Positions 1 through 60,411 of a stretch of DNA of 64,000 nucleotides are shown piece after piece. Under the pieces are notes generated by a model, which was not told where the DNA came from, searched no databases, and worked only from the letters and a program-made list of their open reading frames with translations. A program made the translations under genes and the position numbers. The DNA lies in the IMG/VR virus record IMGVR_UViG_2639762884_000001; one strand, given 5' to 3'. The number at the start of each line of letters is the position of its first letter. Positions within the stretch are counted from its first letter, which is position 1. The stretch is from a virus (taxonomy: Duplodnaviria; Heunggongvirae; Uroviricota; Caudoviricetes).

Positions 1-1359
1 TATACGATCCGCATAACAACGGCCACAACGACAAGTGTTTCCGGTGCTCTCACTAATGCGGAGTTTATCTATGTATTTAATGGCACAGATTATTCTCCAG
101 GATGGCGAAGAGTATATAACACGAAAAACAAACCAACAGCCTCTGATGTCGGTGCATTACCTCTTACCGGTGGTACATTATCTGGAGGTTTGACATCTTC
201 TGGCGAGATCATTTCAAAATATGCAAATGGTTTCCGCATTGCTTACGGTAGCTTTGGGTTCTTTATCCGTAATGATGGATCGAACACATATTTCATGCTA
301 ACAGCATCAGGAGACACATTAGGTTCATGGAACGGTTTGCGACCTATTACAATTAATAATACCAGCGGTGCTGTATCAATTGGTAATGGACTAAATGTGA
401 CTGGTGGCGTAAATGGTAGTTTGAACGGTAATGCTTCAACAGCTACGAAGTTGCAAACAGCGAGAAACATCAATGGTGTTAAGTTTGATGGCTCAGGCGA
501 TATCAACATTAATACATTGGTATCTCGTGGCCGAGTTACGGCGTTAAGCGGTTCTACTCAAGGTACTGCTGGCATTCAAATGTACGAGGCGTACAACAAT
601 AGCTACCCGACCACGTATGGCAACGTATTGCACATGAAAGGTGCGAGTGCTGCTGGTGAGGGCGAGTTGCTTATTGGCTGGAGTGGTACGAGCGGTGCAC
701 ATGCGCCGGTTTTCATTCGCTCCAGAAGAGATACCACTGATGCGGCATGGTCAGCGTGGGCGCAGGTATATACCGCTAAGGATTCAATCCCTGGTGTGAA
801 TACAACCGGTAATCAGAATACTACTGGTAATGCCGCAACAGCCACAAAATTGCAGACAGCAAGGAAAATTGCTGGTGTGGCGTTTGATGGCTCTGCCGAT
901 ATAACTTTGACTGCGGCTAACCTTAATGCTTACACGAAAACAGAGGTAACAAACCTTCTAAGTTCCTATGTGAAGAGCAGTGCTCTTCCAAGCATGACTG
1001 TGCGAACTTCCTCTGTTTCAGGTGGGGATATGGGCATGAGCTTGTCCGCATTCATTAGCCACCTAAAATCAAATGGGGCGTTTAGCAAAAGTTATTGGAT
1101 TGGCTTTGGCGATGCTATGGGATTCAATGCTGGCAGTATCAACAATATAACGGGATTTGGTGCTGTAGAATTAGCAGAATCTATAATCGAAGTTTTTAAT
1201 CTACCTAACGGTGATTATACAATTCGTTTAACAACGTCACATAAAGCTGACTACGGTGGAGTTACAAACGCAATCCTCGTTTATCACTACCGTAGTAATA
1301 GAAGTCCGTCAGGTCAATGGCTGAAATTTGCAGGTACTGTTGGGGCAACAAGTAACTGA
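1..1359 (+). CDS. tail fibre protein, C-terminal portion (5' end upstream of window)
   Basis: Frame 1 open from base 1 to stop at 1357-1359; table ORF 190..1359 is only the part after the first Met; Gly/Thr/Asn/Ser-rich; two copies of fibre motif GNAxTATKLQTARxIxGVxFDGSxDI. Confidence 0.7.
   Translation, partial: YTIRITTATTTSVSGALTNAEFIYVFNGTDYSPGWRRVYNTKNKPTASDVGALPLTGGTLSGGLTSSGEIISKYANGFRIAYGSFGFFIRNDGSNTYFMLTASGDTLGSWNGLRPITINNTSGAVSIGNGLNVTGGVNGSLNGNASTATKLQTARNINGVKFDGSGDININTLVSRGRVTALSGSTQGTAGIQMYEAYNNSYPTTYGNVLHMKGASAAGEGELLIGWSGTSGAHAPVFIRSRRDTTDAAWSAWAQVYTAKDSIPGVNTTGNQNTTGNAATATKLQTARKIAGVAFDGSADITLTAANLNAYTKTEVTNLLSSYVKSSALPSMTVRTSSVSGGDMGMSLSAFISHLKSNGAFSKSYWIGFGDAMGFNAGSINNITGFGAVELAESIIEVFNLPNGDYTIRLTTSHKADYGGVTNAILVYHYRSNRSPSGQWLKFAGTVGATSN
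427..903 (+). repeat. intragenic duplicated tail-fibre motif (copies ~427-504 and ~826-903)
   Basis: NGNASTATKLQTARNINGVKFDGSGDI and TGNAATATKLQTARKIAGVAFDGSADI in the same frame. Confidence 0.6.
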
Positions 1360-2992: not shown

Positions 2993-3216
2993 GTCGATGA
3001 TTGATGAGTGGTCTCAGTTTACCTTTTATCCTAAAGATGGCATCTTCACTCATATACACGCCTGTTCACTCAAGCTCATGTTGAATCATTTAGTAATTTG
3101 ATGTAGATTTATTAGGCATCCACGTAAGTGGACACATACAGGCTACGCATCCTCGTAGCCTTCAACCCCGAGAGGGGTGCCGCAATGACACTTGTGTTAA
3201 CGGCTAAGGTGGACAC

Positions 3217-3600
3217 ATGCTGAACGAGAAACGTTCTATACAAACTATTCGCGATTGCACGAGTATTATCGAGACTCATGTGCTGAATCAGCACAAGCTT
3301 GAAGTACGTAAGCTCAATAATGACGCTATTGAACCGGAAGACTCACGCTTCATCGTTACCTTCAAAGACGATGTTGAGCGCGCTGGTGCAAGCGTGAAGC
3401 CATTAGCTGAAGCAATTTACCTGAATGGTCGTGTTCGTTTTGTAGTCAAGCCAGCTAAACAGTACCCTGAGCTGTCTCGTTTTATCGAGGCTTTTTCGGA
3501 GGTTATTGAACATTCTATTCGCCGCTTCTTACGCAATCATGGTAGCATTGTCAGCACGGTTAAGGCTGATGATTCTGCTACAAAATGGCTCCTACACTAG
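3217..3600 (+). CDS. hypothetical protein
   Basis: ORF with AAGGTGGA RBS before ATG 3217. Confidence 0.5.
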   Translation: MLNEKRSIQTIRDCTSIIETHVLNQHKLEVRKLNNDAIEPEDSRFIVTFKDDVERAGASVKPLAEAIYLNGRVRFVVKPAKQYPELSRFIEAFSEVIEHSIRRFLRNHGSIVSTVKADDSATKWLLH

Positions 3601-4337
3601 ATAGCGCATATTCAAAAGATCTAAGCGAGTTTCCTCATAAAGGGGAGACTCGTGTTGTTCGTTTTGGCTTTCTTATCAATGAAGCCTCCCTCTATAAAAT
3701 CTCAGAAATTGAAATCATTGAACCAGAAGATGACATTTGCCTGTATGTCTCTATGGAACGTGTAGGTGCGCGCGACCAAGGCGACCTGAGCGAATTCATC
3801 TTAGATCGAGCGGATGAAGATGCCCCTGAAGAAGAGATTATCAAAGAGGTGCTCCAGTCCGGGCTTCTGGACGAAAACAAAAATACGATCGCTGGTAGGA
3901 TAGCTCTGCGTGAATATAGTTTTGTTGAAGACGGTAATGAGATCGAATGTTACCAGGTAGCCGGTGTCGAAACTGTCAGAGAGCGTCGTCAGCGAGGATT
4001 GTGTCACCGTACCTATCTCTTTCTTCTTCATTGGTATGAGCATTTAGTCTGCGACGATACACAAACCATTCCTGGTGCTAAGATCTGGGCAGGGCCTCTC
4101 ATGCGAACCGGCGATGTGCGTATATACAATGCCAAAACAGAAACGTTCGAGGATGTGTTAGGTGAGTACGGGATGGGGAAAGAAACCGGATTTTTGCCGT
4201 GGAACAGAGGATTGTTGCTTGATGCAGAGTTAAGCTCTTGGCTCCCAAACAAAGTGCAAGTTAACGTTCAGAAATTTATCGTACTTATCATCTCCCGCAA
4301 AACAAGAACTCCAGTAGGTTTATACCTAAAAGATTAA
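3585..4337 (+). CDS. hypothetical protein
   Basis: 250-aa ORF overlapping the upstream gene by 16 nt; followed by a terminator. Confidence 0.5.
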   Translation: MAPTLDSAYSKDLSEFPHKGETRVVRFGFLINEASLYKISEIEIIEPEDDICLYVSMERVGARDQGDLSEFILDRADEDAPEEEIIKEVLQSGLLDENKNTIAGRIALREYSFVEDGNEIECYQVAGVETVRERRQRGLCHRTYLFLLHWYEHLVCDDTQTIPGAKIWAGPLMRTGDVRIYNAKTETFEDVLGEYGMGKETGFLPWNRGLLLDAELSSWLPNKVQVNVQKFIVLIISRKTRTPVGLYLKD

Positions 4338-4342
4338 AAATC

Positions 4343-4366
4343 AGGCGACTTTGGTCGCCTTTTTGT
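4343..4366 (+). terminator. rho-independent terminator
   Basis: aggcgactttggtcgcct stem followed by ttttt. Confidence 0.6.
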
Positions 4367-4462
4367 TAACAGCCATTGATTCTCGCCTAAAAATTCTAAG
4401 GCAGCACCTACCATTTAACCTTTACACCACAGCCGTAGGCATTTAGGCTATATCACATATAA

Positions 4463-4480
4463 GAAAACAAGTTGTTTCAG
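4463..4480. promoter_or_regulatory. GAAAACAA-N-TTGTTT palindromic motif upstream of parA
   Basis: gaaaacaagttgtttcag, 50 nt upstream of ATG 4513; one of six near-identical sites. Confidence 0.45.
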
Positions 4481-4512
4481 ACGATAATTATATACGCAAA
4501 GGGAACTCTCCA

Positions 4513-5181
4513 ATGACCAAGATCTTTGTGGTTGGCGGCACAAAGGGCGGGCCTGGCAAATCCACCGTTGCCCAGCAAATTGCCGTTTGCCTGAAAGTCA
4601 AAAAGAAGAAGAAGGTTTATATCACCGATATAGATATTCAGCGCACGACAACGAGCTGGTGTGAAGACCGTCGACAGAACGAAGATCTTGAGCTGATTCC
4701 TTTTGCATACGTTCAAGATGACATCATTAAGCACCTAAAATCGCTTCAGGGTAGAGCTGAGTATGTAGTGGTAGATGCTGGTGGCTTTGACTCCGAAATT
4801 CAGCGACAAGCGATGCTGATGGCCGACGTTATCATTATCCCGCTGCGTCCTAAGCGTCGTGATTTGAAATCTTTACGTGACATCGATCCTATTATCGACA
4901 ATGTTCGCAATGTAAACGACAAAGTGAAAGTCCGCGCGGTCATGAACCAATGCCCGGCTTTGCCATCACAAGTGTCTCGCATTCTAGCGGCTAAAGAGAT
5001 TGTCGAGACGTTTGGCATCGAGTCTGCGCCAGTCAATCTATATAACCGCAACGTCTATGATGATGCGGAAGAGTCTGGTCGTTCTATCTTTGAAATGACC
5101 GGTAGCGAGCGCGACAAAAAGGCGGAAGCCGAGTTTGAAGAATTTGTAGATTATCTGTTGAGTCTGGAGGAAGAAGAATAA
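4513..5181 (+). CDS. parA: ParA-family partition ATPase (small type)
   Basis: Deviant Walker A GGTKGGPGKST near N-terminus; 222 aa; followed by small partner gene. Confidence 0.8.
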   Translation: MTKIFVVGGTKGGPGKSTVAQQIAVCLKVKKKKKVYITDIDIQRTTTSWCEDRRQNEDLELIPFAYVQDDIIKHLKSLQGRAEYVVVDAGGFDSEIQRQAMLMADVIIIPLRPKRRDLKSLRDIDPIIDNVRNVNDKVKVRAVMNQCPALPSQVSRILAAKEIVETFGIESAPVNLYNRNVYDDAEESGRSIFEMTGSERDKKAEAEFEEFVDYLLSLEEEE

Positions 5182-5540
5182 TGTCCATGAAAATGGGTGA
5201 CCTAGCAAAGCGCAAAGAGCCTGATGCACCGGCTAAGAACACAACTCCTTTGCGCCAACCAATCAGACCACAGGGACGCCCGACTCGTGGCAAAGAGAAA
5301 ATTAAAAGCCGCACGATGTCACTGGAAGACGAATACTTCGAACTGCTGGAGATGATGAAGTTCATCCCTCGCTTCGAGAAGTTCACCCGTTCTGACGTGA
5401 TTCGCGCAGCCATTTTCCATCTGGCAGAGAAGTCACCGCAGGAAATCGAGGACATCGTGAAACTTAACGAGGCGATCACTGCTGCCGATGTCACGATGCG
5501 TACCGATGAAATTAAACGCGAGTTAATGAAGAAAGGTTGA
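5181..5540 (+). CDS. small partition partner protein (ParB/ParG-like centromere-binding protein)
   Basis: 119-aa basic protein translationally coupled to parA (ATG overlaps stop); position only, no motif proof. Confidence 0.45.
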   Translation: MSMKMGDLAKRKEPDAPAKNTTPLRQPIRPQGRPTRGKEKIKSRTMSLEDEYFELLEMMKFIPRFEKFTRSDVIRAAIFHLAEKSPQEIEDIVKLNEAITAADVTMRTDEIKRELMKKG

Positions 5541-5546
5541 TATAAA

Positions 5547-5581
5547 TCTCTAAGGCTGGTCTGCATTGGACAGCCTTAGAA
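5547..5581. terminator. bidirectional stem-loop between convergent genes (also candidate ParB site)
   Basis: ctctaaggctg ... cagccttagaa perfect inverted repeat. Confidence 0.45.
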
Positions 5582-5600
5582 ATATTTCGTTCTATGAAAG

Positions 5601-6659
5601 CTATTCGTAGTTAAGCTCACCGAACAGACTGAACATCAAGTCACCATCCAAAATTTCAAAGGGCAACTCGACATACTCATCCTTATGTCTCGGAATTGCG
5701 TTGCCGTCGTTAGGGGCATTCTTGGTATAACCTTTTACATGTTTACCGTTTTCTTTTGTATACGGCAGCACGACAATTCGACCGTGATTTTTTGAAATGA
5801 TAGTTCCTTCTTTCCAGAGCGTATTGCCTCTTGAGGTGGTTTCGCTTTCGCTAGCAACTTTAACACTCCAACCTACCTGATTTTTGTCCTCAAACCAGAA
5901 AACAAAGTTGCCAACAACCAGTACCTTTTGCCCATTCCTGAGAGCTTCATCCAGCATTCTTTTTACGCTGGCGAGTTGCAGTAACCGGTTAGCACGCGGC
6001 AGAAGCATTGAGCGAATAGTCGCTTTTGTTTTTCCCCAATGTGCAGCGCCTGATAAACCAAAACCTCTGGCTATGCGTTCTTGGTAGCAGATCTTCGCTG
6101 TCTTAGCTTTGTTGTTATATGAACATTCCCAAGTGTTAGGAGCAACGAGTTGAAGTGAAACTTGGAATTTGGGAAGAAAAACAAAATGTAAGTAAGGCAT
6201 CTCGCTTAGCACGTCAAAAAGGGGTTGACGCAAAGTTTCGTAATCTGGGTTAATTATTAACTCATTTAATGTCACTCGCGGATCGTTGGCGTGTGCCTTA
6301 ATTGCTTCGTTGAGCATTATATGCTCTTCATCCATGAGACGTGATTTGGCTTTGAGTGCTTTGTCAACTTTCAAACGCAATGACTTCTTTTGAAACATAG
6401 ATAGAGGAAGTTTTTCAATGTCAAAGCTCACGTTTTTATTCAGCTCTAATGCCGCTTTTCTTGCTTCAGGATAGTTATCGTAGTCGTCATCAAAAGCGTG
6501 GTTTGGCATACCACGATCAACATATCGCCGATACCAAGCAAGGGTTCCATCATTACGGAGTTTCAGACAGAACATCGACCATTTATTCCGTTCATATTTA
6601 GGCTGAGGCCAAAAAGCCAGTTCGGGAAGGCCATATCCTGGAAGTCTATTCATGCGCAT
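5601..6659 (-). CDS. hypothetical protein
   Basis: Long minus-strand ORF (table 5601..6674, GTG); ATG at 6659 preferred; no recognised motif. Confidence 0.5.
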   Translation of the reverse strand: MRMNRLPGYGLPELAFWPQPKYERNKWSMFCLKLRNDGTLAWYRRYVDRGMPNHAFDDDYDNYPEARKAALELNKNVSFDIEKLPLSMFQKKSLRLKVDKALKAKSRLMDEEHIMLNEAIKAHANDPRVTLNELIINPDYETLRQPLFDVLSEMPYLHFVFLPKFQVSLQLVAPNTWECSYNNKAKTAKICYQERIARGFGLSGAAHWGKTKATIRSMLLPRANRLLQLASVKRMLDEALRNGQKVLVVGNFVFWFEDKNQVGWSVKVASESETTSRGNTLWKEGTIISKNHGRIVVLPYTKENGKHVKGYTKNAPNDGNAIPRHKDEYVELPFEILDGDLMFSLFGELNYE

Positions 6660-6948: not shown

Positions 6949-7689
6949 ATGAGCCAAATCTTTTTCGATACCATCGACAACGACCAGTACGACTTCATGA
7001 CAGAGTGGAATACCGCTGTTATGGACAAGTGGGTCGCTGAAAACATTGGTTTGTCGCGCTGTAAAGACGAGGCTGAACTCTTCGAGACGAAGTGGTTTGA
7101 TTACCGCGACATGCATCCTCTGATGGCCACCTGTCTATTTACGGAGGCATACAAACGTCAGTACTCAAATATCATGCTGACGCACGGTCGCGAACACTTT
7201 GAAACAGCTCCGTTCACCACCGGGTTAAAACGCCTGCCTTATCAGGAGTTGTCGACTGCCAATAAAACGTCGCTATGGAAAGCACGCCAGTTTGCTGACC
7301 GCTATTGCTGCTCATACGACTACTTTATCTCCACCGTTCTTTCCGCAGCTGCACGACGACTGTGGGACAAGCTGCCGCGTCCGCAGCATTTGTGGCAGCC
7401 AGAACTGATTGAGATATTTGAAGATAAATTAGCCAGACGCGCAACAACCCGTCTGGATGACTCTCTGGTTAGCTTTAAGCATATGGGAGACATGCAGTTC
7501 AACCCGATTCAGGAAAGCTATTTTGAGTGGATTCTGGAGCGTTTACGCGCCATCCCCCGCAGCAAGCGCATACGCGCAATTTTCTCCGCTATCTGGCTAA
7601 TGGAAATCGTTCCAGAGCGCCTTATTTCCGCCCACTTTCCAGAAGAACTGGAAGAAGCACGGCGGTTTATTGATCCCCTATCTAATTAA
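6949..7689 (+). CDS. hypothetical protein (upstream of helicase)
   Basis: ATG 6949 with AGGTGA RBS; table start 6940 is GTG. Confidence 0.5.
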   Translation: MSQIFFDTIDNDQYDFMTEWNTAVMDKWVAENIGLSRCKDEAELFETKWFDYRDMHPLMATCLFTEAYKRQYSNIMLTHGREHFETAPFTTGLKRLPYQELSTANKTSLWKARQFADRYCCSYDYFISTVLSAAARRLWDKLPRPQHLWQPELIEIFEDKLARRATTRLDDSLVSFKHMGDMQFNPIQESYFEWILERLRAIPRSKRIRAIFSAIWLMEIVPERLISAHFPEELEEARRFIDPLSN

Positions 7690-7698
7690 CTAATACTA

Positions 7699-7716
7699 GA
7701 AAACAATTTGTTTAAA
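7699..7716. promoter_or_regulatory. GAAAACAA-N-TTGTTT palindromic motif upstream of helicase
   Basis: gaaaacaatttgtttaaa, 34 nt upstream of ATG 7733. Confidence 0.45.
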
Positions 7717-7732
7717 AAACAAAGGAAAGCAC

Positions 7733-9073
7733 ATGACCGAACTTTGCCATACAGGACGCGGGCTGTCCGAAGAGTTTGATGAAGATTTCCAGAACAGACT
7801 GACGGCATATTTTTGTCGTGATCACGAGTTTCTTACTCGTGCGGGAGATCTGGTTGTGCCTAGCCAATTTGCCAATGCGGCCAATGCCATATTGGTTAAT
7901 ATGGTTTCGGGCTATTACCGTATGTACAAGAGCGCGCCCTCTTCATCTGCAATTCTGGATATGCTTAAGCGTGCGAAACGCGATAAGACTATCCGTGAGG
8001 AACTATTCGCCGATGTTGTTGCTGCGTTTAAGCGCATCCTTGCAGAAAAATTGTCCGATACCTCGTACATGGTTGACCAGGTATCAACCTTCGCAAAAAG
8101 CGTAGCGTTTGATGATGCTCTGATTAAGGCTGCTGAACTGAAAGAGAAAGGCGACTTTCAGGGGGCGATGGCAATCATGGCCAAGGTTCAGCAGATTGGA
8201 TCGAACGAAGCGACCGGAATCTATGACTACTACACCTCCGCAAGTGAGCGATTGAAAGCGCGTGAATATGAGGCTTCAGAGGAGTATGTGCCAAACAGCA
8301 TTACAACTGGACTCCCTCTGCTCGATAGGTTGTTGTACCAAAAAGGCTGGGCGAAGCGTGAAATGGTGCTCTTCATGGGGTTCGCTAAATCCGGTAAATC
8401 GACCGCAATGGGTGAGTTTTCCATAAACGCAACGCTTGCTGGCTACAATGTTCTGTATCTCTCGCTGGAGGTTCACACCACCATTTTATCCGACCGTTTT
8501 GATGCAAGATTGTCGGAGACAGAAATGTCCAAGCTAGTGGAACGGCGCGATGAGGTTCATCGTAAGTTGGCAGAGTTGGGAGCCACGAAGGGGATTGGTA
8601 GTTTGTGGGTGGTTGAGCGTCCGTCAGGAAGTATGTCACCGGCAGATCTGGACCGTATGCTTAACAGCATGAAAGCCAACGGCATGGTGCCTGACATGGT
8701 TGTTGTCGACTACGCAGATTTGATGCGTGCCAGTTATGACCTTCGTGATGATCGCGCCAACATTCGTAGTATCTACACCGATTTACGTGCTCTTTATGAC
8801 AAACATAACGTTGCTGGAATCACGGCATCGCAGACAAACCGTGAAGGTGGCGCGTCAGAAGTTGCCACAATGATGCACGCCGCCGACAACATCGAAAAAG
8901 TACGTATTGCTGACCTGGTAATAACGATCAACAAAACCGAAGAAGAAGAAGCGAAAGGAGAGGCTCGTCTCTACTTTGCTGGTTCACGTAACCAGCAGGG
9001 AGGGATCAGCATTCGCGTTAAACAAAACCTCGAACAAATGCGCTTCATTGAGCGAATCTTAGACGTTACCTAA
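7733..9073 (+). CDS. replicative DNA helicase (DnaB-like, RecA-fold C-terminal domain)
   Basis: Walker A GFAKSGKST; DnaB-type C-terminal region (VVVDYADLM, ITASQTNRE). Confidence 0.75.
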   Translation: MTELCHTGRGLSEEFDEDFQNRLTAYFCRDHEFLTRAGDLVVPSQFANAANAILVNMVSGYYRMYKSAPSSSAILDMLKRAKRDKTIREELFADVVAAFKRILAEKLSDTSYMVDQVSTFAKSVAFDDALIKAAELKEKGDFQGAMAIMAKVQQIGSNEATGIYDYYTSASERLKAREYEASEEYVPNSITTGLPLLDRLLYQKGWAKREMVLFMGFAKSGKSTAMGEFSINATLAGYNVLYLSLEVHTTILSDRFDARLSETEMSKLVERRDEVHRKLAELGATKGIGSLWVVERPSGSMSPADLDRMLNSMKANGMVPDMVVVDYADLMRASYDLRDDRANIRSIYTDLRALYDKHNVAGITASQTNREGGASEVATMMHAADNIEKVRIADLVITINKTEEEEAKGEARLYFAGSRNQQGGISIRVKQNLEQMRFIERILDVT

Positions 9074-17208: not shown

Positions 17209-18429
17209 TTAATTAAAACCGAATGAATTAAGTTCTGCTTTGAATTTATCGACCATTTTTTCAACTTCGTTTACAATTGCGTGAATCTCTTCGTCTTTTC
17301 TCGGATTAGAATTGAGGTCAAAATATGCCTTATATAAGGCATATTTTGACAAGCTTCCTTCAATATTTTCAGAGAAAATATTGGTACGACCATCAGTTAA
17401 TAAGATATCAGCAGATCGGGAATTTAAATTATATTTATAGTAAATCTTTATTAGTCTGCTTATCTCTTTTTCATTCTTGATTACCCTCTGTCTTTTACCA
17501 GCAATATTAAGACTCCAGCCTACATAACTAGTCAGATCGGAATTAAACTTACACACTTCCGCATCAGCTTTTTCCATATTTAGATTAATATTATTTCTCA
17601 TGTGTAGCGGTAATTCGTTGAATTTTTGCTGTAAATGCTGTTTGCAGGGATTGTTGTAAGACCACAGAATTGCGAACGTAGCTCTTTGCATCCGGGTATT
17701 CAGATCGATGTTAAAGTTCTCACGATCACGAATCATTTCATCTACATAAAACTCTACAGCTTTTCGGTATTCTTTGTTAAAGATCTCGGTAACATACATT
17801 TCTAAATAATGGACTTTCGAGATTGCCTCATCAAAAAAAAGCTCACTCTCAAAGAAGTTGTATTTATTTAAGAGATTAGAAAGTCTACTTAAGTCATAGG
17901 TTTTATTATTTTCAATATTAAGACCAAAAATGGCAATTAACAGACTTACTTTATGATTAATACTGCTACGTAATTGAGCTATATAAATTCTCTTTTCATC
18001 TTCTGCTGATGACAGTAGATAAAACTCTTTATCTAAATAATTTAAAATTAGAATTATGTGATTTACATATTTAATGTAAATAGGTTGTTTTGTTACATAA
18101 TAATAAATGCTTTTGATGGAATTAATGCTCAATTTCGTATTAAACTCTTTGTCATTCAACAAAGTGTTATTTACGTCCTCAAGTAATTTATCATGTTGCT
18201 CTAGTAATATTCCGTACCATTCTTTAAAAGAGGCTTTTTTCATTTCAAGAAGTGAATCTGCCGTTAATTGTGTTGCCTTCATTGCAGCTTTTGCACTATT
18301 TCTTGCCTCATAAGCAGCCCAAGCAGTAACAAAAGTAGCAAGTGAACCTATAGCCTCTTTGTATTCTTTAGCCACATCCCAAAAAATAATAGTTATTACA
18401 CACAATATGAGAATTAATATTAAAGGCAT
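17209..18429 (-). CDS. membrane-anchored protein of unknown function (AT-rich accessory gene)
   Basis: N-terminal TM MPLILILILCVITIIFW; remainder K/N/Y/F-rich; composition visibly more AT-rich than neighbours; opposite strand. Confidence 0.55.
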   Translation of the reverse strand: MPLILILILCVITIIFWDVAKEYKEAIGSLATFVTAWAAYEARNSAKAAMKATQLTADSLLEMKKASFKEWYGILLEQHDKLLEDVNNTLLNDKEFNTKLSINSIKSIYYYVTKQPIYIKYVNHIILILNYLDKEFYLLSSAEDEKRIYIAQLRSSINHKVSLLIAIFGLNIENNKTYDLSRLSNLLNKYNFFESELFFDEAISKVHYLEMYVTEIFNKEYRKAVEFYVDEMIRDRENFNIDLNTRMQRATFAILWSYNNPCKQHLQQKFNELPLHMRNNINLNMEKADAEVCKFNSDLTSYVGWSLNIAGKRQRVIKNEKEISRLIKIYYKYNLNSRSADILLTDGRTNIFSENIEGSLSKYALYKAYFDLNSNPRKDEEIHAIVNEVEKMVDKFKAELNSFGFN

Positions 18430-18635
18430 GTTATCTATATCGTTAGTTAATTTTGAACATAAATGATACTTAGTCCACCGCTAAATTTCATCAAATTTGA
18501 TAATTTTCTTGACGATCATGTCTCAAAATTATTTATACTTGGCATATTTGAGATATATAATAATAGGTAATAACACACCTATCACATTTAAGCATCAACA
18601 AGATAAATTACGGACCCAGACCAGAAAGGAAACTA

Positions 18636-28456: not shown

Positions 28457-29422
28457 TTAACAAATTCTATTATTAACTAGTATAGTATGGAGTTTATTAT
28501 TTATAGGGGAATACGGATCGAAATCACTCATCATGACACTATTTGATTCGCACGCCTGTTCAAAGGCATACATAATTATAGGCATATAGCGCTCATGACA
28601 TTTTTTAAGTGATTTAACTTCCTCTGATAGATACTCTAGTCGATTGTTACCTCTAATAGCCAATTCCACCTCATCATATGAGTACAACAAATCGTTTAAA
28701 TCACAGAAAAAATTAAAATTTGGTAGTCCATGTTTTAAATCCCCGTCCACAATTGTTTCTTCAAAGAATTCCCCTAATGCAGTAATGTTTCTCTCAATAC
28801 CTTCGCATCGTTCAATGATCTTCAGATCTTCACTAGATAGCCATAATCTAAGCCATTTCTCTCTATCCCTTGGAGATTTCAGATATTGGTCTTCGTTAAA
28901 TGTTACTGATGTACTTCCTGAGTTATTGTAATCCGCTGTACTTGATAACGATGCGATGGTTTGTTTGTCTAAATGCCGCCAGTAAATATCTGGCTCTTCA
29001 TGCTTATTATCTTCGTTTAGACAAATTAAAACGATCACTATAGGGAAATCGCATTCCCCCCAATACTTTAAATTTTTATAGGGGATCTGTACTCCTAGAC
29101 TACTACTCATTGTGCGTGAGGTGGTTTTTACCTGAACGCCAATAAACATACCGGTAGAAAGTTCATTTTCATAGATTTCAACCTGTGCATCCAACCCCAT
29201 ATCAATATCCAGCAGTCGACAAGGCCATTTGAAATAACGGGAAATCCAATAAGCAAATAAGTACTCACCAGCGTGTCCTTCTGCACTGGTCTTCGGATAT
29301 GTCATGCCTTCAGTTTTATTTTTTTCTGCTGCTGACCTCGCAGACTTAACTTTTGGGGGTGGGGACAGTTCTTTAGTCGGCACAGGCTTTTCTGCTTTTG
29401 CTTGATTGTTAGCTTTATTCAT
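28457..29422 (-). CDS. hypothetical protein with DUF4365-like (restriction-endonuclease-like fold) domain; candidate defence gene
   Basis: Opposite strand, AT-rich, terminator-bounded; Lys/Pro-rich N-tail then GEYLFAYWISRYFKWPCRLLDIDMGLDAQVEIYE...IGVQVKTT; domain assignment from memory. Confidence 0.5.
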   Translation of the reverse strand: MNKANNQAKAEKPVPTKELSPPPKVKSARSAAEKNKTEGMTYPKTSAEGHAGEYLFAYWISRYFKWPCRLLDIDMGLDAQVEIYENELSTGMFIGVQVKTTSRTMSSSLGVQIPYKNLKYWGECDFPIVIVLICLNEDNKHEEPDIYWRHLDKQTIASLSSTADYNNSGSTSVTFNEDQYLKSPRDREKWLRLWLSSEDLKIIERCEGIERNITALGEFFEETIVDGDLKHGLPNFNFFCDLNDLLYSYDEVELAIRGNNRLEYLSEEVKSLKKCHERYMPIIMYAFEQACESNSVMMSDFDPYSPINNKLHTILVNNRIC

Positions 29423-29565
29423 TGATTTTATTCTCACTTTGTTCTGTTCGCTTTATGCCCTGATTCTGCCCTTTAGCTCCCATACTGTCTACCGCTAATC
29501 ATAGCAGTAAAGCTCTTTTTATTTGATATAATCAAATACACAAAATTAAGTTGGAACCTATCAAA

Positions 29566-43096: not shown

Positions 43097-43666
43097 ATGA
43101 GTAAAAAAATCAGCGTAGTTGGTGTTGATCCCTCAATGAGCAACTTTGGGCTTGCTGTGGGCACTTTAGACCTTGAGACGGACGAACTTGAGATTCACGG
43201 CCTTACTCTTGTTGAGACTAAAGCGGGGAGTAACAAAAAGACCGTTCGTGTGAACAGTGACGATCTGCGCCGAGCCAGTGAAATATGGCGTGTTGCGAAG
43301 CCAATCATTGATAAGGCAAATATGGTTTTTTGTGAGCTACCGGTTGGGAGCCAAAACTCTCGTTCGCAGACGTCTTACGGTATTTGTATCGGTGTACTTG
43401 CGTGTGTGGATAAGCCATTGATCCAGGTTACTCCAAACGAAATCAAGCATTTTGTCGGCAATAAACTTACTACATCGAAAGAAGAGATTATCCAGTGGGC
43501 TACGAAAAAACACCCTAAAGCACCGTGGCTGCGTCGTAAGCAATCTGGACAGGATGTTCTCGTGAACAAAAACGAACATTTGGCTGATGCGGTGGCTGCC
43601 ATCCATACCGGTATGCAAACAGATCAGTTCCGCCAGGTGCGCGATGTTCTTAAGTCTCTCATTTGA
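43097..43666 (+). CDS. RuvC-like Holliday junction resolvase
   Basis: N-terminal VVGVDPSMSNFGLAV and C-terminal LADAVAAIHTG resemble the RuvC/RNase H-fold resolvase pattern. Confidence 0.6.
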   Translation: MSKKISVVGVDPSMSNFGLAVGTLDLETDELEIHGLTLVETKAGSNKKTVRVNSDDLRRASEIWRVAKPIIDKANMVFCELPVGSQNSRSQTSYGICIGVLACVDKPLIQVTPNEIKHFVGNKLTTSKEEIIQWATKKHPKAPWLRRKQSGQDVLVNKNEHLADAVAAIHTGMQTDQFRQVRDVLKSLI

Positions 43667-43673
43667 TTTCATT

Positions 43674-43696
43674 GATAGGTAAGTGCTTATCTATTA
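43674..43696. promoter_or_regulatory. GATAGGTAAGTGCTTATCTATTA motif (family member)
   Basis: Just after RuvC stop, before a hairpin and nrdA. Confidence 0.3.
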
Positions 43697-43700
43697 ACAT

Positions 43701-43733
43701 GGGCCACTATATTTAGTGGCCCTCTTTATTTGG
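43701..43733 (+). terminator. rho-independent terminator-like hairpin before nrdA
   Basis: gggccact atattt agtggccc followed by tctttattt. Confidence 0.5.
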
Positions 43734-43739
43734 TGATAC

Positions 43740-46055
43740 ATGATAAGCATCGTAAAACGTAACGGCCAAACAGAGCCGTTATCCGAAGAAAAATACAACC
43801 GCGTCGTAATGTATGGCGTAGAAGGCATTCGTGGTGTAAGCGCATCCGCTGTAGCAATGGGAGCTGCGGCCAGCATTTTTGATGGGATTACCACCAGCCA
43901 GTTGCATGAGGCTTTGGTTAAATCTGCCGCTGATTTGATCTCACCAGAAGCACCAAATTACTCACAGGTGGCTGCCCGCCTGAACATTTTTAAAATCCGC
44001 AAAGATGCCTTCGGTCGTTACGACTATCCGAACTTCTACCAACACATTGTCAAGAACGTTAACAAGGGCGTTTATGACAAGGATTTGCTGACACATTATT
44101 CGTTTGAAGAGATCGAAGAACTCGGCAATTACATTAAGCCGAAACGTGACGATCTTTTTGGCTATGCAGCTACGGTGCAGTTGCAAAGCAAATACCTCGT
44201 TCAAAACCGTGTTACTGGTGAGATTCATGAGGGGCCGCAACATATCTATATGCTGGTAGGCATGTGTCTGTTCCAGAATTGGGAAGACGACTGCGCTGGC
44301 AAAACACGTATGGAGATGGTCAAAGGTTTCTATGACGTTACAAGTACGTTCAAACTGTCTCTGCCCACACCAATCATGGCCGGCGTCCGTACTCCAACCC
44401 GTCAGTTCTCCAGTTGTGTGCTGATTGAGTCTGGCGATAGTCTGAAAGGGATTAGTGCAGCTTCAGCCGCAATTATCGACTACGTTTCACGTCGTGCTGG
44501 AATTGGTATTGGTTTTGGCCGTATCCGTGCGCTGGGCAGCGAGATCCGCAATGGTGAAGCCACCCATACTGGAGTTATTCCATTCCTGAAGCATTTCCAG
44601 ACGGCTGTTAAATCTTGTTCGCAAGGTGGTGTTCGTGGTGGCGCAGCAACAGCGTTTTACCCGATCTGGCATCTTGAAGTTGAAAGTCTGCTGGTGGTGA
44701 AAAATAACCGTGGTATTGATGAAAACCGCGTTCGCCATCTTGATTACGGCGTCATGAGTAACCGTCTAATGTACCGTCGACTCGTCAGAAGCGAGAACAT
44801 CACTCTGTTCAGCCCGCATGATGTGCCTGATATGTACGAAGCCTTCTTCACAGACCAGGAGCTGTTTGAAAAGCTGTACCATAAATACGAAGCCGATGAT
44901 TCAATTCGCAAGAAGTCAGTACCTGCCATTGAGCTGTTCTCATCTCTGATGCAGGAACGAGCGTCCACGGGCCGAATTTATATTGCGAACGTCGATCATA
45001 TTAATGAGCATGGCGCTTTCATTCCTGCTCTTGCACCTGTTCGCCAGTCAAACCTGTGTATGGAGATCACCCTACCCACCCGTCCACTGGCATTTACCGA
45101 CGACCCGAACGGTGAGATCGCGCTATGCACTTTATCCGCTTTTAACCTCGGAGCCATCCGTTCACTGGAGTCTCTTAAAGAGGTGGCGTTCTATGCCGTT
45201 GCTGCACTGGATTCGTTACTGGATTATCAAGACTATCCGATGGAGGCAGCCGAAGTGCCTGCCAAAGCTCGTCGTAGCTTGGGAATTGGTGTAACCAACT
45301 TTGCTTATTACCTGGCAAAGAATGGCGTTCGTTATTCTGATACCGCTGGCAATAAACTGGTGCATGAAACGTTCGAAGCTATCCAGTATTACCTTCTTGA
45401 TGCCAGCTGCCGACTTGCTGAAGCAAAAGGTGAGTGTGACTGGTTTGAGCAGACCAAATACGCAATTGGTCAGTTGCCGATCGACCATTACCGTTCTTCA
45501 TTAGACGAAAGTGGCGAAACCAACTTTGAGTTAAAGATGCCGTGGGAAGAACTGCGTGAACGTATTGCAAAATACGGCCTTCGCAACTCCACTCTGACGG
45601 CACAAATGCCATGCGAGACTTCCAGCCAGATCACTAATTCCACCAACGGCATCGAACCGCCTCGTGGCCCGGTGTCAGTGAAATCTTCTAAGGACGGCAT
45701 CGTCAAGATGGTCGTGCCTGAGTTTGAAAAACTGAAGGAACAGTATGAATACCTGTGGGATATGCCGGACAACCGCGGCTATCTGACAAAGGTGGCGATC
45801 ATCCAGAAGTTCTTTGACCAGGCTATTTCAGCCAATACCAACTATGACCCTTCTCGCTTTGAAGGCGATAAAGTCCCAATGATGACGCTACTGTCAGATT
45901 TGCTTCTCGCCTACAAGATGGGAGTTAAAACGCTTTACTACCACAACACCAGAGATGGTGCAGGAAAGCGTGATGACGACGAACCGCAGAATCCACTGGC
46001 GCAAGCTGTAGCCGTCGAGCCAGAAGATGAGTGCGACGGAGCCTGCAAAATCTGA
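43740..46055 (+). CDS. nrdA: ribonucleoside-diphosphate reductase large subunit (class Ia)
   Basis: 771 aa; N-terminal ATP-cone-like segment; core shows the class I large-subunit pattern with a C-terminal Cys pair (EDECDGACKI). Confidence 0.85.
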   Translation: MISIVKRNGQTEPLSEEKYNRVVMYGVEGIRGVSASAVAMGAAASIFDGITTSQLHEALVKSAADLISPEAPNYSQVAARLNIFKIRKDAFGRYDYPNFYQHIVKNVNKGVYDKDLLTHYSFEEIEELGNYIKPKRDDLFGYAATVQLQSKYLVQNRVTGEIHEGPQHIYMLVGMCLFQNWEDDCAGKTRMEMVKGFYDVTSTFKLSLPTPIMAGVRTPTRQFSSCVLIESGDSLKGISAASAAIIDYVSRRAGIGIGFGRIRALGSEIRNGEATHTGVIPFLKHFQTAVKSCSQGGVRGGAATAFYPIWHLEVESLLVVKNNRGIDENRVRHLDYGVMSNRLMYRRLVRSENITLFSPHDVPDMYEAFFTDQELFEKLYHKYEADDSIRKKSVPAIELFSSLMQERASTGRIYIANVDHINEHGAFIPALAPVRQSNLCMEITLPTRPLAFTDDPNGEIALCTLSAFNLGAIRSLESLKEVAFYAVAALDSLLDYQDYPMEAAEVPAKARRSLGIGVTNFAYYLAKNGVRYSDTAGNKLVHETFEAIQYYLLDASCRLAEAKGECDWFEQTKYAIGQLPIDHYRSSLDESGETNFELKMPWEELRERIAKYGLRNSTLTAQMPCETSSQITNSTNGIEPPRGPVSVKSSKDGIVKMVVPEFEKLKEQYEYLWDMPDNRGYLTKVAIIQKFFDQAISANTNYDPSRFEGDKVPMMTLLSDLLLAYKMGVKTLYYHNTRDGAGKRDDDEPQNPLAQAVAVEPEDECDGACKI

Positions 46056-46060
46056 CATAT

Positions 46061-46092
46061 GGTGGGGGATATCCCCACCTTCTCTTTGATTT
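46061..46092 (+). terminator. rho-independent terminator
   Basis: ggtggggatatccccacc followed by ttctctttgattt. Confidence 0.6.
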
Positions 46093-46115
46093 GTAAGCCT
46101 TGTTTAAACACATAA

Positions 46116-46133
46116 GATAACAACTTGTTTAAA
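46116..46133. promoter_or_regulatory. GATAACAA-N-TTGTTT palindromic motif upstream of nrdB
   Basis: gataacaacttgtttaaa, 46 nt upstream of ATG 46162. Confidence 0.45.
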
Positions 46134-46161
46134 CGCACCAAAAAAGAAAAAGGAAAAACAC

Positions 46162-47304
46162 ATGTCATATTCAACGTTCCGTTTGGGTGCTAATGATGCA
46201 ACCAAAGAGCCTATGTTCCTCGGACAATCTGTCAACGTGGCACGTTACGATCAGCAAAAATACCGTGATTTTGAAAAGTTGATTGAACGTCAATTGTCTT
46301 TCTTCTGGCGGCCGGAAGAAGTTGATATTTCGAGCGATCGTATCGACTTCAACACGAAGCTGCGGGACCACGAACGTCACATTTTTCTGAGCAATCTCCG
46401 TTATCAAACGTTACTCGATTCAGTTCAGGGACGTAGTCCAAATGCAACGCTGCTGCCGCTTATCTCTATTCCTGAACTGGAAACGTGGGTTGAAACGTGG
46501 TCTTTCTCTGAGACTATCCATAGCCGCAGCTACACCCACATTATTCGTGGCATGGTGGACGATCCGAGCATTGTTTTTGACGGTATTGTTACGGATGAAG
46601 AAATCATCAACCGAGCGATCAGTATCTCTGCTGAATATGACAGGCTTTATGGGATGACCTGCGAGCGCCAGTCGTTAGGTGAGAAGGAGTTTGAACGTCT
46701 GTACGTAAATGAATATGGCTGGGAGCCATACCCTTTGCACCGTCAGCTTTTCCGCACGTTGGTGTCCATTAATGCGCTTGAGGCGATCCGTTTCTATGTA
46801 AGTTTTGCATGTACGTTTGCCTTTGGCGAACGGAAGTTGCTTGAGGGTAACACCAAAATTATGCGCTTTATTGCCCGTGATGAAGCTCTGCATTGCGAAG
46901 GAACTGAACGCATGATCCGCTTCATGCGTACCGGTCGCGAAGGTTTATTGTGGAAAGAGATTGCCGCTGATGAAGAAAACGTCATTTACGACACCATGAA
47001 ATCAGTCGCCGAACAAGAAATGAACTGGGCAGACTATCTCTTCAAAGACGGTTCGATGATTGGTTTAAACGCGGATATTCTCAAAACCTATGTAAAATAC
47101 CGCACCAATCTGGCTATGAATCGTCTTGGCCTGAAGGCTTTATTTCCAGAGGTTACCACCGATCCGCTGGTCTGGATGAACAAGTGGTTGTTAACCGACA
47201 CACTGCAAATTGCACCACAAGAGGCAGAGCAAAGCACATATCTGGTAGGTCAGATCGATTCTACCGTGGATAAGGCTTCTCTAAGCCAGTTTGCTGACCT
47301 GTAA
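46162..47304 (+). CDS. nrdB: ribonucleoside-diphosphate reductase small subunit (class Ia)
   Basis: 380 aa directly after nrdA; di-iron/tyrosyl-radical subunit pattern ([22 protein letters not shown]). Confidence 0.85.
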
Positions 47305-57669: not shown

Positions 57670-57723
57670 TCTGATATGGCCGCATGATCGGCCATATTGT
57701 GTTGATAAAAACAAGGGTGAAAA

Positions 57724-58005
57724 ATGGCATACGGTACAGGGATTTACAACAATAAAGGAATTAACGTTACTGGCTTCCTTACACCTATTTTTTTTCTTGA
57801 TCGATTTACGGCGTCATCAGGCTCTAAGACGTACTCTAATCCGCCACCGGGTAAATCACTACATGCCGTGTGGTCATTAATGCCTCTTAACAACGACAAC
57901 TACATCAATTTACCTGTTCCAAATGTTACTATTAATGGAAATACGGTTAGTTGGTCAAATTTATATACGGGGCTTGGTTCTTACATATACACATACTGGG
58001 GATAA
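57724..58005 (+). CDS. hypothetical protein (AT-rich accessory gene 1 of 2)
   Basis: 93 aa, Asn/Tyr/Gly-rich; AT-rich composition. Confidence 0.45.
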   Translation: MAYGTGIYNNKGINVTGFLTPIFFLDRFTASSGSKTYSNPPPGKSLHAVWSLMPLNNDNYINLPVPNVTINGNTVSWSNLYTGLGSYIYTYWG

Positions 58006-58007
58006 TT

Positions 58008-58622
58008 ATGTTCGGGATGTCAATTACTCAATCAGATGGAAGTTTGTGGATGAGTCCAGAATTTACTCCGCAAAATCTGATTAATAAAGGGACAATGTCT
58101 ACATCTAAAGGTTCTGTTTTTCAAACATCAATCCCATCAAACAAATCATGTTTTTTTTTCATAAAAAGCAGTAATAAGGCGAACATGATGTTTATTCATG
58201 AGCATAGTAACGGATACAATGCTCTCAGATTGCATCAGGTAAATGGTAGCCCCGGAACAATAACAGTTTATGCTTTTTCTGATATGGTGTTACCACATTC
58301 TGGCTATGGCATTGCCATGTATAACAGCGCAGGCGCAATGGTGTATCACGGTGAGATGATGCCCCTTGATGCGAAACTTATCACTATTTCTGACCCTCAA
58401 TTTACAATAGATATGGGGTATCCATGTGCGGTAATGCCTGCTATGGTTGGAGTATATAACTATAGACGAACCGATTACGACAGACCTGTCTATGTAACAA
58501 TGACAGGTGCAACTGGAAACCAAGTATATAACGGTCAATGGTATTCCGGTAATGTCACATGGGATATTAAGAAGATTTATACAAACAAAATTCTGGTGAT
58601 AAATACCTCCAAGTATGATTAG
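58008..58622 (+). CDS. hypothetical protein (AT-rich accessory gene 2 of 2)
   Basis: ATG 58008 three nt after upstream stop; Asn/Tyr/Met-rich, predicted beta-rich. Confidence 0.45.
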   Translation: MFGMSITQSDGSLWMSPEFTPQNLINKGTMSTSKGSVFQTSIPSNKSCFFFIKSSNKANMMFIHEHSNGYNALRLHQVNGSPGTITVYAFSDMVLPHSGYGIAMYNSAGAMVYHGEMMPLDAKLITISDPQFTIDMGYPCAVMPAMVGVYNYRRTDYDRPVYVTMTGATGNQVYNGQWYSGNVTWDIKKIYTNKILVINTSKYD

Positions 58623-58685
58623 CCAATGCCTTTATTTGAAGGATTGCCTGTTTATTTCTATTTAGTACCTTTTCATTTTTGAAAT

Positions 58686-58725
58686 AATTGCACCATTAAA
58701 CAAATCACTTCTTAATGGTGCAATT
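58686..58725. promoter_or_regulatory. perfect 14-bp inverted repeat abutting the methyltransferase start codon
   Basis: aattgcaccattaa - 12 nt - ttaatggtgcaatt, ending at the ATG. Confidence 0.5.
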
Positions 58726-60411
58726 ATGAATACAGCCCTTTCCATCATCGACGATGCCAACTCAAACACTGCTATCGACTATCGGCAGGAAATGAACGTC
58801 ATCCACGAAATTGTGGCCGAGTGCGAGAAAGAGATCGCCTTCATGTATCAGGTTCACGACTTCGTTTATGGCGACGAACGCCACAACATGATTAATCGCC
58901 TGCTGAGACTAAACCATCGACCAGATGAAGATCGCTCGCGTTTAAATCGAGGTTGGTTGGATAAAGTCGATCTGGAATGGGTGAAACAGAATATTTGGGC
59001 CGAGTACTGGAGGAAGGTCACGGACATGACTAACGTTTTGCTGATCATGCCAGCTTCCCGTCGAGATGAGTGGCGCGAGCAGTTTATAGAGGGCAAACAG
59101 GAAGTCATCAAAACTGACAGAACCGGCTACCAGATGAAGGTTAAAGAGTTCGTTGGTGTACCGGAGTTCAAAGCAGAAACGGTCATACCCACGATGCTTA
59201 ATTTGCTGAATGACAGGCACAAATATCTCTCTGAGCGCGTGTATGGCTTGTTTAAGGCGCTGAGTCCTGCGCACAAGACAAATAAGACAAACGGTTTCAG
59301 CGAGCGTCTGATAATCGCTGACTGCATTTCTGATTTCTGGCGGGACAGCGTTAGCGTGAACTATCGCAAAGAGGACTACATCGACGATCTGCGTGTCTTG
59401 CTTCATTTCTTCGCGCACAAAGAATTTATTACCATCAACCGCACTGCTGAGGTGCTATCAGCTGCGTATCGGGCAAACGACTGCCAGACCGGTGACTGGA
59501 TGAACGTCGATGGAAATCTGATGCGCGTGAAGATGTTCAAGAACGGCAACGTTCACTTTGAAATACATCCTGACGTGGCCTGGAAGTTGAATGAGGTGCT
59601 GGCTTACAGTATGCCTGCTGCAATTCCCGCGCCATGCCGAACTGCGCCAAAAACACGGGCACCAAAGCAGTTCGGGTTAATCCAGAAGACGATCTCCGTG
59701 CCGGTTCGCACTGCGCTTCGTGACGGGCGATTTAGCAAAGACAAAGGCGTATGGTACTTCTCTGATTCAGCTCTCCAGAAGTCGCAGGTGGAAGAGCTTG
59801 AGCGCACACTGAGCTTCATTGGCGGCGTGCAGGAGAAAAAGCACTGGCAGTTCCCGTATGAGATCGGCCATACGCTAAATACGATTGTGGCTACCGGTTT
59901 AATACCGGATACAAAATCACACCAGTTCTACCCTACCCCACGCTTGATTGCTGAGTACGTTGCCAGAGCCACTGAATTGAAGCCTGGTGAGAAGTTGTTG
60001 GAGCCTCAAGCCGGACGTGGGGATCTTCTGGCCTATATTAACGCCGATCTGGAAGATGTTACCTGCATAGAAATCGCACCTCTCTTCGCTGATATCCTGC
60101 GTGGAAAAGGGTATACGAACACGATTTGCTGCGACTTCATAAAGTGGTCTGAGGACAACGCAGGTTATCAGTTCGACAAAATCGTTATGAACCCGCCGTA
60201 CTCGCTTGGTCGTCATAGAGAGCACACGCTGGCTGCGCTGGGGCATCTGAAAGTCGGCGGGCGTCTTGTAGCAGTATTGCCGGGCACTGCGCCAATACTG
60301 GACTGGATGACGATGGATAATTACGTTTATGCCAGAGGGAAGTCGTTTACCAACGAGTTTGAAGACACAGGGATCACAGTCAGCGTATACGTTTTCAAAC
60401 GCGTTAAATGA
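58726..60411 (+). CDS. DNA N6-adenine methyltransferase (gamma-class) fused to a large N-terminal domain of unknown function
   Basis: C-terminal ~180 aa: FYPTP, SAM motif LEPQAGRGDLL, catalytic MNPPYS; N-terminal ~380 aa without recognised motif; no adjacent restriction enzyme gene. Confidence 0.65.
   Translation: MNTALSIIDDANSNTAIDYRQEMNVIHEIVAECEKEIAFMYQVHDFVYGDERHNMINRLLRLNHRPDEDRSRLNRGWLDKVDLEWVKQNIWAEYWRKVTDMTNVLLIMPASRRDEWREQFIEGKQEVIKTDRTGYQMKVKEFVGVPEFKAETVIPTMLNLLNDRHKYLSERVYGLFKALSPAHKTNKTNGFSERLIIADCISDFWRDSVSVNYRKEDYIDDLRVLLHFFAHKEFITINRTAEVLSAAYRANDCQTGDWMNVDGNLMRVKMFKNGNVHFEIHPDVAWKLNEVLAYSMPAAIPAPCRTAPKTRAPKQFGLIQKTISVPVRTALRDGRFSKDKGVWYFSDSALQKSQVEELERTLSFIGGVQEKKHWQFPYEIGHTLNTIVATGLIPDTKSHQFYPTPRLIAEYVARATELKPGEKLLEPQAGRGDLLAYINADLEDVTCIEIAPLFADILRGKGYTNTICCDFIKWSEDNAGYQFDKIVMNPPYSLGRHREHTLAALGHLKVGGRLVAVLPGTAPILDWMTMDNYVYARGKSFTNEFEDTGITVSVYVFKRVK

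Follow-up and report, generated by a model that had tools for sequence, protein, structure and literature searches.

Pairs of small genes adjoining the gene for the central tail fibre or needle have been described in Dhillonvirus JLBYU60, in Traversvirus phi24B (gp55 and gp54) and in Littlefixvirus. Matusiak et al. (2025) modelled a small 'Ig-like' and a larger 'hand-like' protein from JLBYU60, phi24B and a Pseudomonas phage, reported low predicted membrane affinity and, with AF2-Multimer, suggested that the pair forms a tail-spike tip that had been overlooked, while also allowing 'structural or chaperone-like roles' (PMC12309495). In phi24B, gp54 (204 aa) was detected at low abundance in the virion proteome and gp55 was not detected, and cryo-electron microscopy revealed at the needle tip an additional density whose size is roughly that of a gp54-gp55 heterodimer (10.64898/2026.04.10.717836). 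The receptors given for these relatives are FhuA for JLBYU60 (PMC12309495) and possibly BamA for phi24B (10.64898/2026.04.10.717836). Here we describe a member of this family in a 64,000-nucleotide stretch of viral DNA (IMG/VR record IMGVR_UViG_2639762884_000001; the window), which is an SSU5-like phage-plasmid. Its two adjacent genes, g1 and g2, probably encode a receptor-binding protein split into two subunits, a tail-tip module encoded in trans that would cap the tail protein gpJ.

Two other described systems resemble this locus in part. The Rtp44-type protein, a single chain of ~310 aa belonging to the DUF6453 family, binds LptDE by experiment, and an exclusion role has been proven for the neighbouring lipoprotein Rtp45 (10.1101/2025.07.07.663478). 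At this locus in small siphoviruses the allele tracks the terminal receptor (PMC8594841; bioRxiv 10.64898/2026.04.02.716166). The split family associated with BtuB, FhuA and BamA and the single-chain LptD binders were called 'unrelated' in a 2026 preprint. SSU5 itself carries two genes of related architecture, SSU5_023 and SSU5_024, at the end of its tail module together with the Cor-like SSU5_025. The kind of module reported here is already known, and what is newer is modest: this member, its location away from the tail operon, and a remote tie to the LptD binders.

The two genes lie in different reading frames, and both open reading frames (ORFs) are intact:

57724..58005, plus strand: g1, 93 aa, predicted small lectin/Ig-like beta-sandwich subunit, the probable equivalent of the N-terminal third of single-chain relatives of ~316 aa.
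58008..58622, plus strand: g2, 204 aa, predicted 'hand-like' all-beta subunit and probable receptor-contacting part.

The TAA stop codon of g1 is followed, 2 nt later, by the ATG of g2, and the motif GGGGA stands 7 nt 5' of that ATG. Because the N-terminus M-(F/Y)-G-M-S-I-T is kept in 14 homologues of g2, its start was placed at 58008 in preference to the alternatives, a 223-aa ORF with a TTG start and the shorter annotation in Escherichia phage Cyrano (pLF82). The 1.2 kb around the pair is 99.9% identical to Cyrano, and several Escherichia coli and E. marmotae plasmids are 100% identical over the same stretch. The window holds no second copy of the pair.

Over their full lengths, g1 matches PHROG 557 (E = 6e-29) and g2 matches PHROG 425 (E = 2e-72). 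These PHROGs, the sizes of the products (92-93 and 204-205 aa) and the gene order are those of the pair described by Matusiak et al., a family that also covers ORF72/ORF73 of the Stx2 phage Sp5 and bas06_0025/bas06_0024 of Bas06. Identity of g1 and g2 is 63% and 62%, respectively, to the Stx-phage pair, and 60% and 44% to the Bas06 pair. The SSU5 pair is like that of the window in phage family and two-gene architecture, with 29% identity between g2 and SSU5_024 (E = 1e-10) and 30% between g1 and SSU5_023, but it differs in its locus, in its very divergent sequence and in the adjacent Cor-like gene, which has no counterpart in the window.

PHROG 557 is labelled 'outer membrane protein' and PHROG 425 'membrane associated protein', labels that are unsupported here, and amount to mislabelling, because neither product has a signal peptide, a lipobox or a membrane segment (maximum 19-aa hydropathy 0.94 for g1 and 1.1 for g2). 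The N-termini read MAYGTGIYNNKG and MFGMSITQSDGS, and g1 is without Cys; the N-terminus of bas06_0026, taken as a lipoprotein for comparison, reads MKKLIAVLIAAVALTGC. Neither g1 nor g2 has a beta-barrel fold or a Pfam outer-membrane-protein domain of the Lom/Ail type. The AF2 models of both are almost wholly beta, in agreement with the beta-rich character that the first-pass annotation had predicted from the letters alone, and take the form of soluble beta-sandwiches, not barrels, so that an all-beta fold without membrane features is a further likeness to the pair of Matusiak et al. The profile and structure searches which that annotation had proposed thus yielded two PHROG families and a beta fold, but nothing significant in Pfam, and nothing in NCBIfam or PADLOC for either gene.

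Single-chain relatives point to the two genes being parts of one protein. An exhaustive profile search gave 114 cluster representatives, among which are proteins of ~316 aa whose g2-like part begins near residue 100. In profile-profile comparison, the g2 family aligns with residues 100-317 of these proteins (probability 99.95%, E = 1e-37) and the g1 family with residues 3-80 (probability 94%, E = 1e-7). A single collinear alignment holds g1, bas06_0025, SSU5_023 and the N-termini of the fused proteins, and in tblastn one fused protein hits both members of the split pair. As judged from these alignments, the ~316-aa single chains would correspond to g1 plus g2. The two halves themselves were not significantly similar to one another in BLASTP, and only suggestively so in hhalign (probability 58%).

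The link to Rtp44 and its family is more distant. In hhalign, the g2 family matches the Rtp44/DUF6453 family with a probability of 93% over 73 columns; no signal was obtained for g1 against the Rtp44 family, nor for the fused family against it, the latter probably a consequence of shallow alignments. Sequence searches of the PDB with the g1 profile, the g2 profile and a fused relative returned nothing meaningful. Among solved structures, that of a receptor binder caught while bound to its receptor is by far the closest to the model, and the fold is shared with a solved receptor-binding protein of the DUF6453 family. Rtp44 and RBP-Oekolampad (PDB 9rpt), both LptDE binders, are encoded in the same genomic niche as relatives of the pair, beside gpJ and an exclusion lipoprotein. 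A short Gly-centred strand motif, read by eye, occurs three times in Rtp44 and likewise in the ~316-aa relatives and in g1 and g2 together (once in g1, twice in g2). Unlike the split 93 + 204 aa of the window, however, Rtp44 and RBP-Oekolampad are single chains, and identity over the structural alignment is only 13%. Specificity for LptD cannot be assumed for the window pair.

The small-then-large gene order on one strand is common to the window, JenP1, Bas06, the Stx prophage and SSU5, and the positions of the relatives associate them with the tail tip. In the virulent Nonagvirus JenP1 the pair separates gpJ from the tail gene that comes next, is on the opposite strand and has no listed neighbour gene, while in Bas06/KarlJaspers (Drexlerviridae) it lies downstream of gpJ and is preceded by a lipoprotein gene (LTGC lipobox). 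Stx-type podophages and prophages have it just after a 422-aa needle gene and before lom; SSU5_023/024 follow the tail-fibre genes and precede the Cor-like gene; and RTP has the single-chain Rtp44 together with the lipoprotein Rtp45 at the same position. The coding part of the window pair, and that part only, is 78% identical in nucleotides to Nonagvirus JenP1, JenP2 and BRET, where the pair lies by gpJ. The terminal receptor of Bas06 is BtuB, as established by experiment. Unlike the pairs of Matusiak et al., which adjoin a central fibre or needle gene, the window pair is an insertion beside a DNA methyltransferase gene, with a 189-aa early-region gene on its other side and neither a lipoprotein nor a Lom gene attached. 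In the window the holin gene comes directly after the tail-fibre gene, whose end is at 1359, and there is no pair at this place, where SSU5 has one.

Two of the homologous pairs are flanked by genes of a different kind, a lipoprotein gene in Bas06 (4455-4724 of sequence L007) and the Cor-like SSU5_025 in SSU5 (7621-7854 of sequence L006). The window cassette has no lipoprotein or Cor-like gene attached; if the pair is a receptor binder, the phage-plasmid lacks here the matching exclusion gene that is usual.

The gpJ gene lies outside the window and was examined in Cyrano. The C-terminus of Cyrano gpJ reads ...IDVYDDNNVLRVRIGRL (also ...VYDDNNVLRVRIGRL), its terminal motif is common to JenP1 gpJ, Bas06 gpJ and the Stx needle, and identity to JenP1 gpJ is 37.5% over the last ~190 residues. 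By this resemblance, the Cyrano gpJ tip appears compatible as a docking site for the pair. As a separate observation, Cyrano positions 43137-46576 (3138-6577 of sequence L013) are annotated as dimethylbenzimidazole phosphoribosyltransferase and cobalamin synthetase, which is curious given the tie of a relative to BtuB, the B12 receptor.

We propose that g1 and g2 are translated as a coupled pair, with g1 as the counterpart of the N-terminal, tail-proximal domain in the single-chain relatives and g2 as that of the other two thirds, in which the receptor-contacting end lies. Together they would rebuild a body like that of Rtp44 or RBP-Oekolampad, which would dock on the conserved C-terminal tip of gpJ, a tip proposed to be without a receptor-binding domain of its own, and the distal loops of g2 would then bind a beta-barrel protein of the host outer membrane. 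That the two form a heterodimer, dock on gpJ, bind a receptor and are expressed during lytic growth is our inference. Relatives within the family have been linked to BtuB, to FhuA and possibly to BamA, and the remote single-chain relatives have been linked to LptD; no receptor prediction for either JenP1 or Cyrano was located in the supplements of the preprint. The first-pass annotation had also suggested surface-related products, and this holds in the sense that the pair most likely acts as a virion tail tip binding the host surface, but not in the sense of bacterial membrane proteins.

The pair is accessory and mobile rather than core, as a comparison with relatives makes clear, and the acquisition that the first-pass annotation had suggested agrees with the structure of the locus. 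The flanking genes, for a 189-190-aa protein (61% identity between the window and SSU5) and for a DUF4942 methyltransferase, are adjacent in SSU5 (SSU5_094 and SSU5_095, 141 nt apart), and the pair is therefore an insertion of ~950 bp. The elements of the locus are as follows:

57670..58660, approximate: insertion relative to SSU5, from the SSU5 annotation and a junction alignment; the SSU5 megablast match begins only at ~58712.
57674..57697, plus strand: hairpin ATATGGCCG-CATGAT-CGGCCATAT, located after the 189-aa upstream gene and before g1, read from the sequence.
57714-57720, plus strand: ribosome-binding site (RBS) of g1, AAGGGTG, downstream of the hairpin.
58684..58727, plus strand: perfect 16-nt inverted repeat ATAATTGCACCATTAA / TTAATGGTGCAATTAT, arms 12 nt apart, overlapping the RBS and ATG of the methyltransferase gene.
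58726-60411, plus strand: DUF4942 methyltransferase gene, 561 aa, with DUF4942 at the N-terminus and a class I SAM methyltransferase part at the C-terminus.

The methyltransferase gene, starting at 58726, is the large one that the first-pass annotation had placed directly downstream of the pair. The second arm of the inverted repeat spans its RBS and the first bases of its start codon, and SSU5 keeps the repeat in part; it probably belongs to the leader of the methyltransferase gene and not to the cassette, and could occlude translation of the methyltransferase or serve as an operator. The hairpin at 57674..57697 was not called in the terminator scan. A promoter scan gave no promoter-like site adjoining g1, its one weak match lying inside the upstream gene, and the sites were fewer than expected by chance; Rfam gave no RNA family within 56.5-59.5 kb.

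Distribution among plasmids is patchy. A gene of the g2 family is present in 245 PLSDB plasmids, 122 of the window type and 123 of the SSU5_024 type only. The extra places in PLSDB amount to 11 in total, and three of the records listed there (EDL933, K. aerogenes and a 198-kb plasmid) are not cases of both types; with so few, the window and SSU5_024 types seldom co-occur, and the near mutual exclusion of the two types in plasmids is a further point of likeness between the pairs. The window-type pair occurs at an identity of at least 95% in 112 plasmids, mostly without another copy. An attempt to read the pair as the SSU5 tail-locus pair relocated, in a strict either/or relation, fails, as both types are present in CP099126.1 and a few other plasmids, and ~300 related plasmids are without either. 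An 82-kb Klebsiella aerogenes plasmid, NZ_CP014747.1, has three separate g2 matches at ~38% identity. Relatives of the methyltransferase at an identity of at least 80% are found in ~546 PLSDB plasmids; a further ~1,460 plasmids have distant relatives (~30%), and many of these are large, with conjugative ability predicted.

Comparison with a close relative shows how the pair evolves. Between the window and the phage-plasmid PhiR41_1, for whose biology no paper was found and whose record gives E. coli K-12 MG1655 as host, the flanking genes differ by a dS of 0.07-0.09, as against 0.85 for g1 and 0.65 for g2, and dN/dS is 0.08 for g1 and 0.105 for g2. The pair has thus undergone an allele swap under purifying selection between near-identical phage-plasmids.

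The composition of the pair deviates as the first-pass annotation had stated, with a GC content of 0.384 against 0.453 for the window. This places it at the 3.8th percentile of sliding 899-bp windows, ~2 standard deviations under the mean, a deviation that is real yet moderate. By GC, g2 ranks third lowest and g1 fourth lowest of the 68 ORFs. The Asn/Tyr/Gly/Met richness noted at the outset was equally borne out: the summed fraction of these four residues ranks 68th and 67th of 68, at the top end, that of Asn and Tyr alone ranks 68th for g1 and 66th for g2, and the two products have the lowest charged-residue fractions of all. The C-terminus of the tail fibre (190..1359) has the same Asn/Tyr/Gly-rich, low-charge make-up as the pair, which is consistent with a place at the tail. 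The most AT-rich stretch of the window lies elsewhere, at 16.9-18.4 kb, with a GC content of 0.29-0.31, much more AT-rich than the pair. Within it (16900-18430), the minus-strand ORF 17209..18429 encodes 406 aa, is Asn/Tyr-rich and has no Pfam or PADLOC match. Its identification with the highly expressed CYRAN_43 proved wrong; Cyrano has integrase and repressor genes at the offset of 17.2-18.4 kb, and the window is therefore not collinear with Cyrano there.

Several observations weigh against a receptor-binding role. In Sp5, ORF72 (92 aa) and ORF73 (205 aa) were each deleted singly and in frame, and neither deletion belongs to the set of nine in which plaque formation or lysogenisation on K-12 was lost (PMC5155283); infection therefore does not require the pair in every case. 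The window pair lies more than 55 kb from the end of the tail-fibre gene, among early-type genes, which is atypical for a structural gene. Both pairs are present in some plasmids, such as CP099126.1, and ~300 of the ~546 plasmids related by their methyltransferase are without a g2 homologue of either type (tblastn, E<=1e-6). Finally, whereas Rtp44 and its relatives carry Pfam DUF6453 (PF20051), g2 reaches only 15.4 bits against a cut-off of 25 and g1 has no match.

The viability of the Sp5 deletions would also suit a tail-tip assembly factor or chaperone that folds or caps the tip of gpJ or of a side fibre without recognising a receptor, a role of the sort allowed by Matusiak et al. (PMC12309495) and one to which the low abundance of the phi24B homologue, with its small subunit undetected, could be attributed. 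We nevertheless regard this as unlikely: the closest solved structure is a receptor binder on its receptor, alleles at the locus track receptor specificity, and no similarity to known Tfa chaperones is found in Pfam or PHROGs. The clean insertion outside the tail module, the tail-locus pair also present in some plasmids, and the confinement of the Nonagvirus nucleotide similarity to the coding part might instead indicate a spare or inert captured cassette, cargo unused by virions yet available for host-range exchange. This too is improbable for a pair with intact ORFs, an RBS and coupled translation, a dN/dS of ~0.1 between phage-plasmid alleles, a gpJ tip that appears compatible, and presence in 112 plasmids that mostly have it as their sole copy.

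It is very unlikely that the pair, whose products the first-pass annotation had considered as possible exclusion proteins, is a superinfection-exclusion or lysogenic-conversion moron by which the resident prophage blocks a receptor or alters the cell surface: deviant composition, accessory status, the database labels 'outer membrane protein' and 'moron' and the exclusion genes housed at the locus in relatives speak for it, but the products have no signal peptide, lipobox or membrane segment, are modelled as soluble beta-sandwiches and match nothing in PADLOC, the membrane affinity computed for homologues is low, the lipoprotein and Cor-like genes of Bas06, SSU5 and RTP are separate neighbours, and the transcripts of CYRAN_88 and CYRAN_89, the pair in Cyrano, stay at prophage background in the LF82 lysogen, with neither gene in the list of morons expressed in lysogeny (PMC9928086).

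Two other genes of the window were noted in passing. The minus-strand ORF at 28457-29437 (326 aa, GC 0.37) carries DUF4365 (E = 2e-16) with a weak match to the PADLOC model Aga_REase-PNTD1-PNTD2 (E = 2e-10), and is possibly a defence gene of nuclease type or a moron. Also on the minus strand, at 10328-11518, lies the gene for a 396-aa Sel1-repeat protein (E = 1.5e-53), with a lower GC content of 0.414.

A split receptor-binding protein capping gpJ remains the reading we favour. A bolder version, which we put forward as speculation and consider rather unlikely as a whole, is that the pair is an exchangeable receptor-binding module acting in trans, maybe co-regulated with the methyltransferase, by which the terminal receptor would be changed or added with the tail genes left untouched; plasmids with two pairs would then give virions with two alternative tips, and the split and single-chain families would form one ancient superfamily. 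Phage-plasmids of the SSU5 type commonly occur in E. coli, Salmonella, Enterobacter and Klebsiella, and knowledge of their host-range genes helps to predict their spread and to correct labels such as 'outer membrane protein', 'membrane associated protein' and 'hypothetical'. The locus indicates that a receptor-binding module need not sit in the tail operon, and tools that scan only beside gpJ would miss such modules. The remote tie to a solved LptDE binder provides a structural template for the whole split family.
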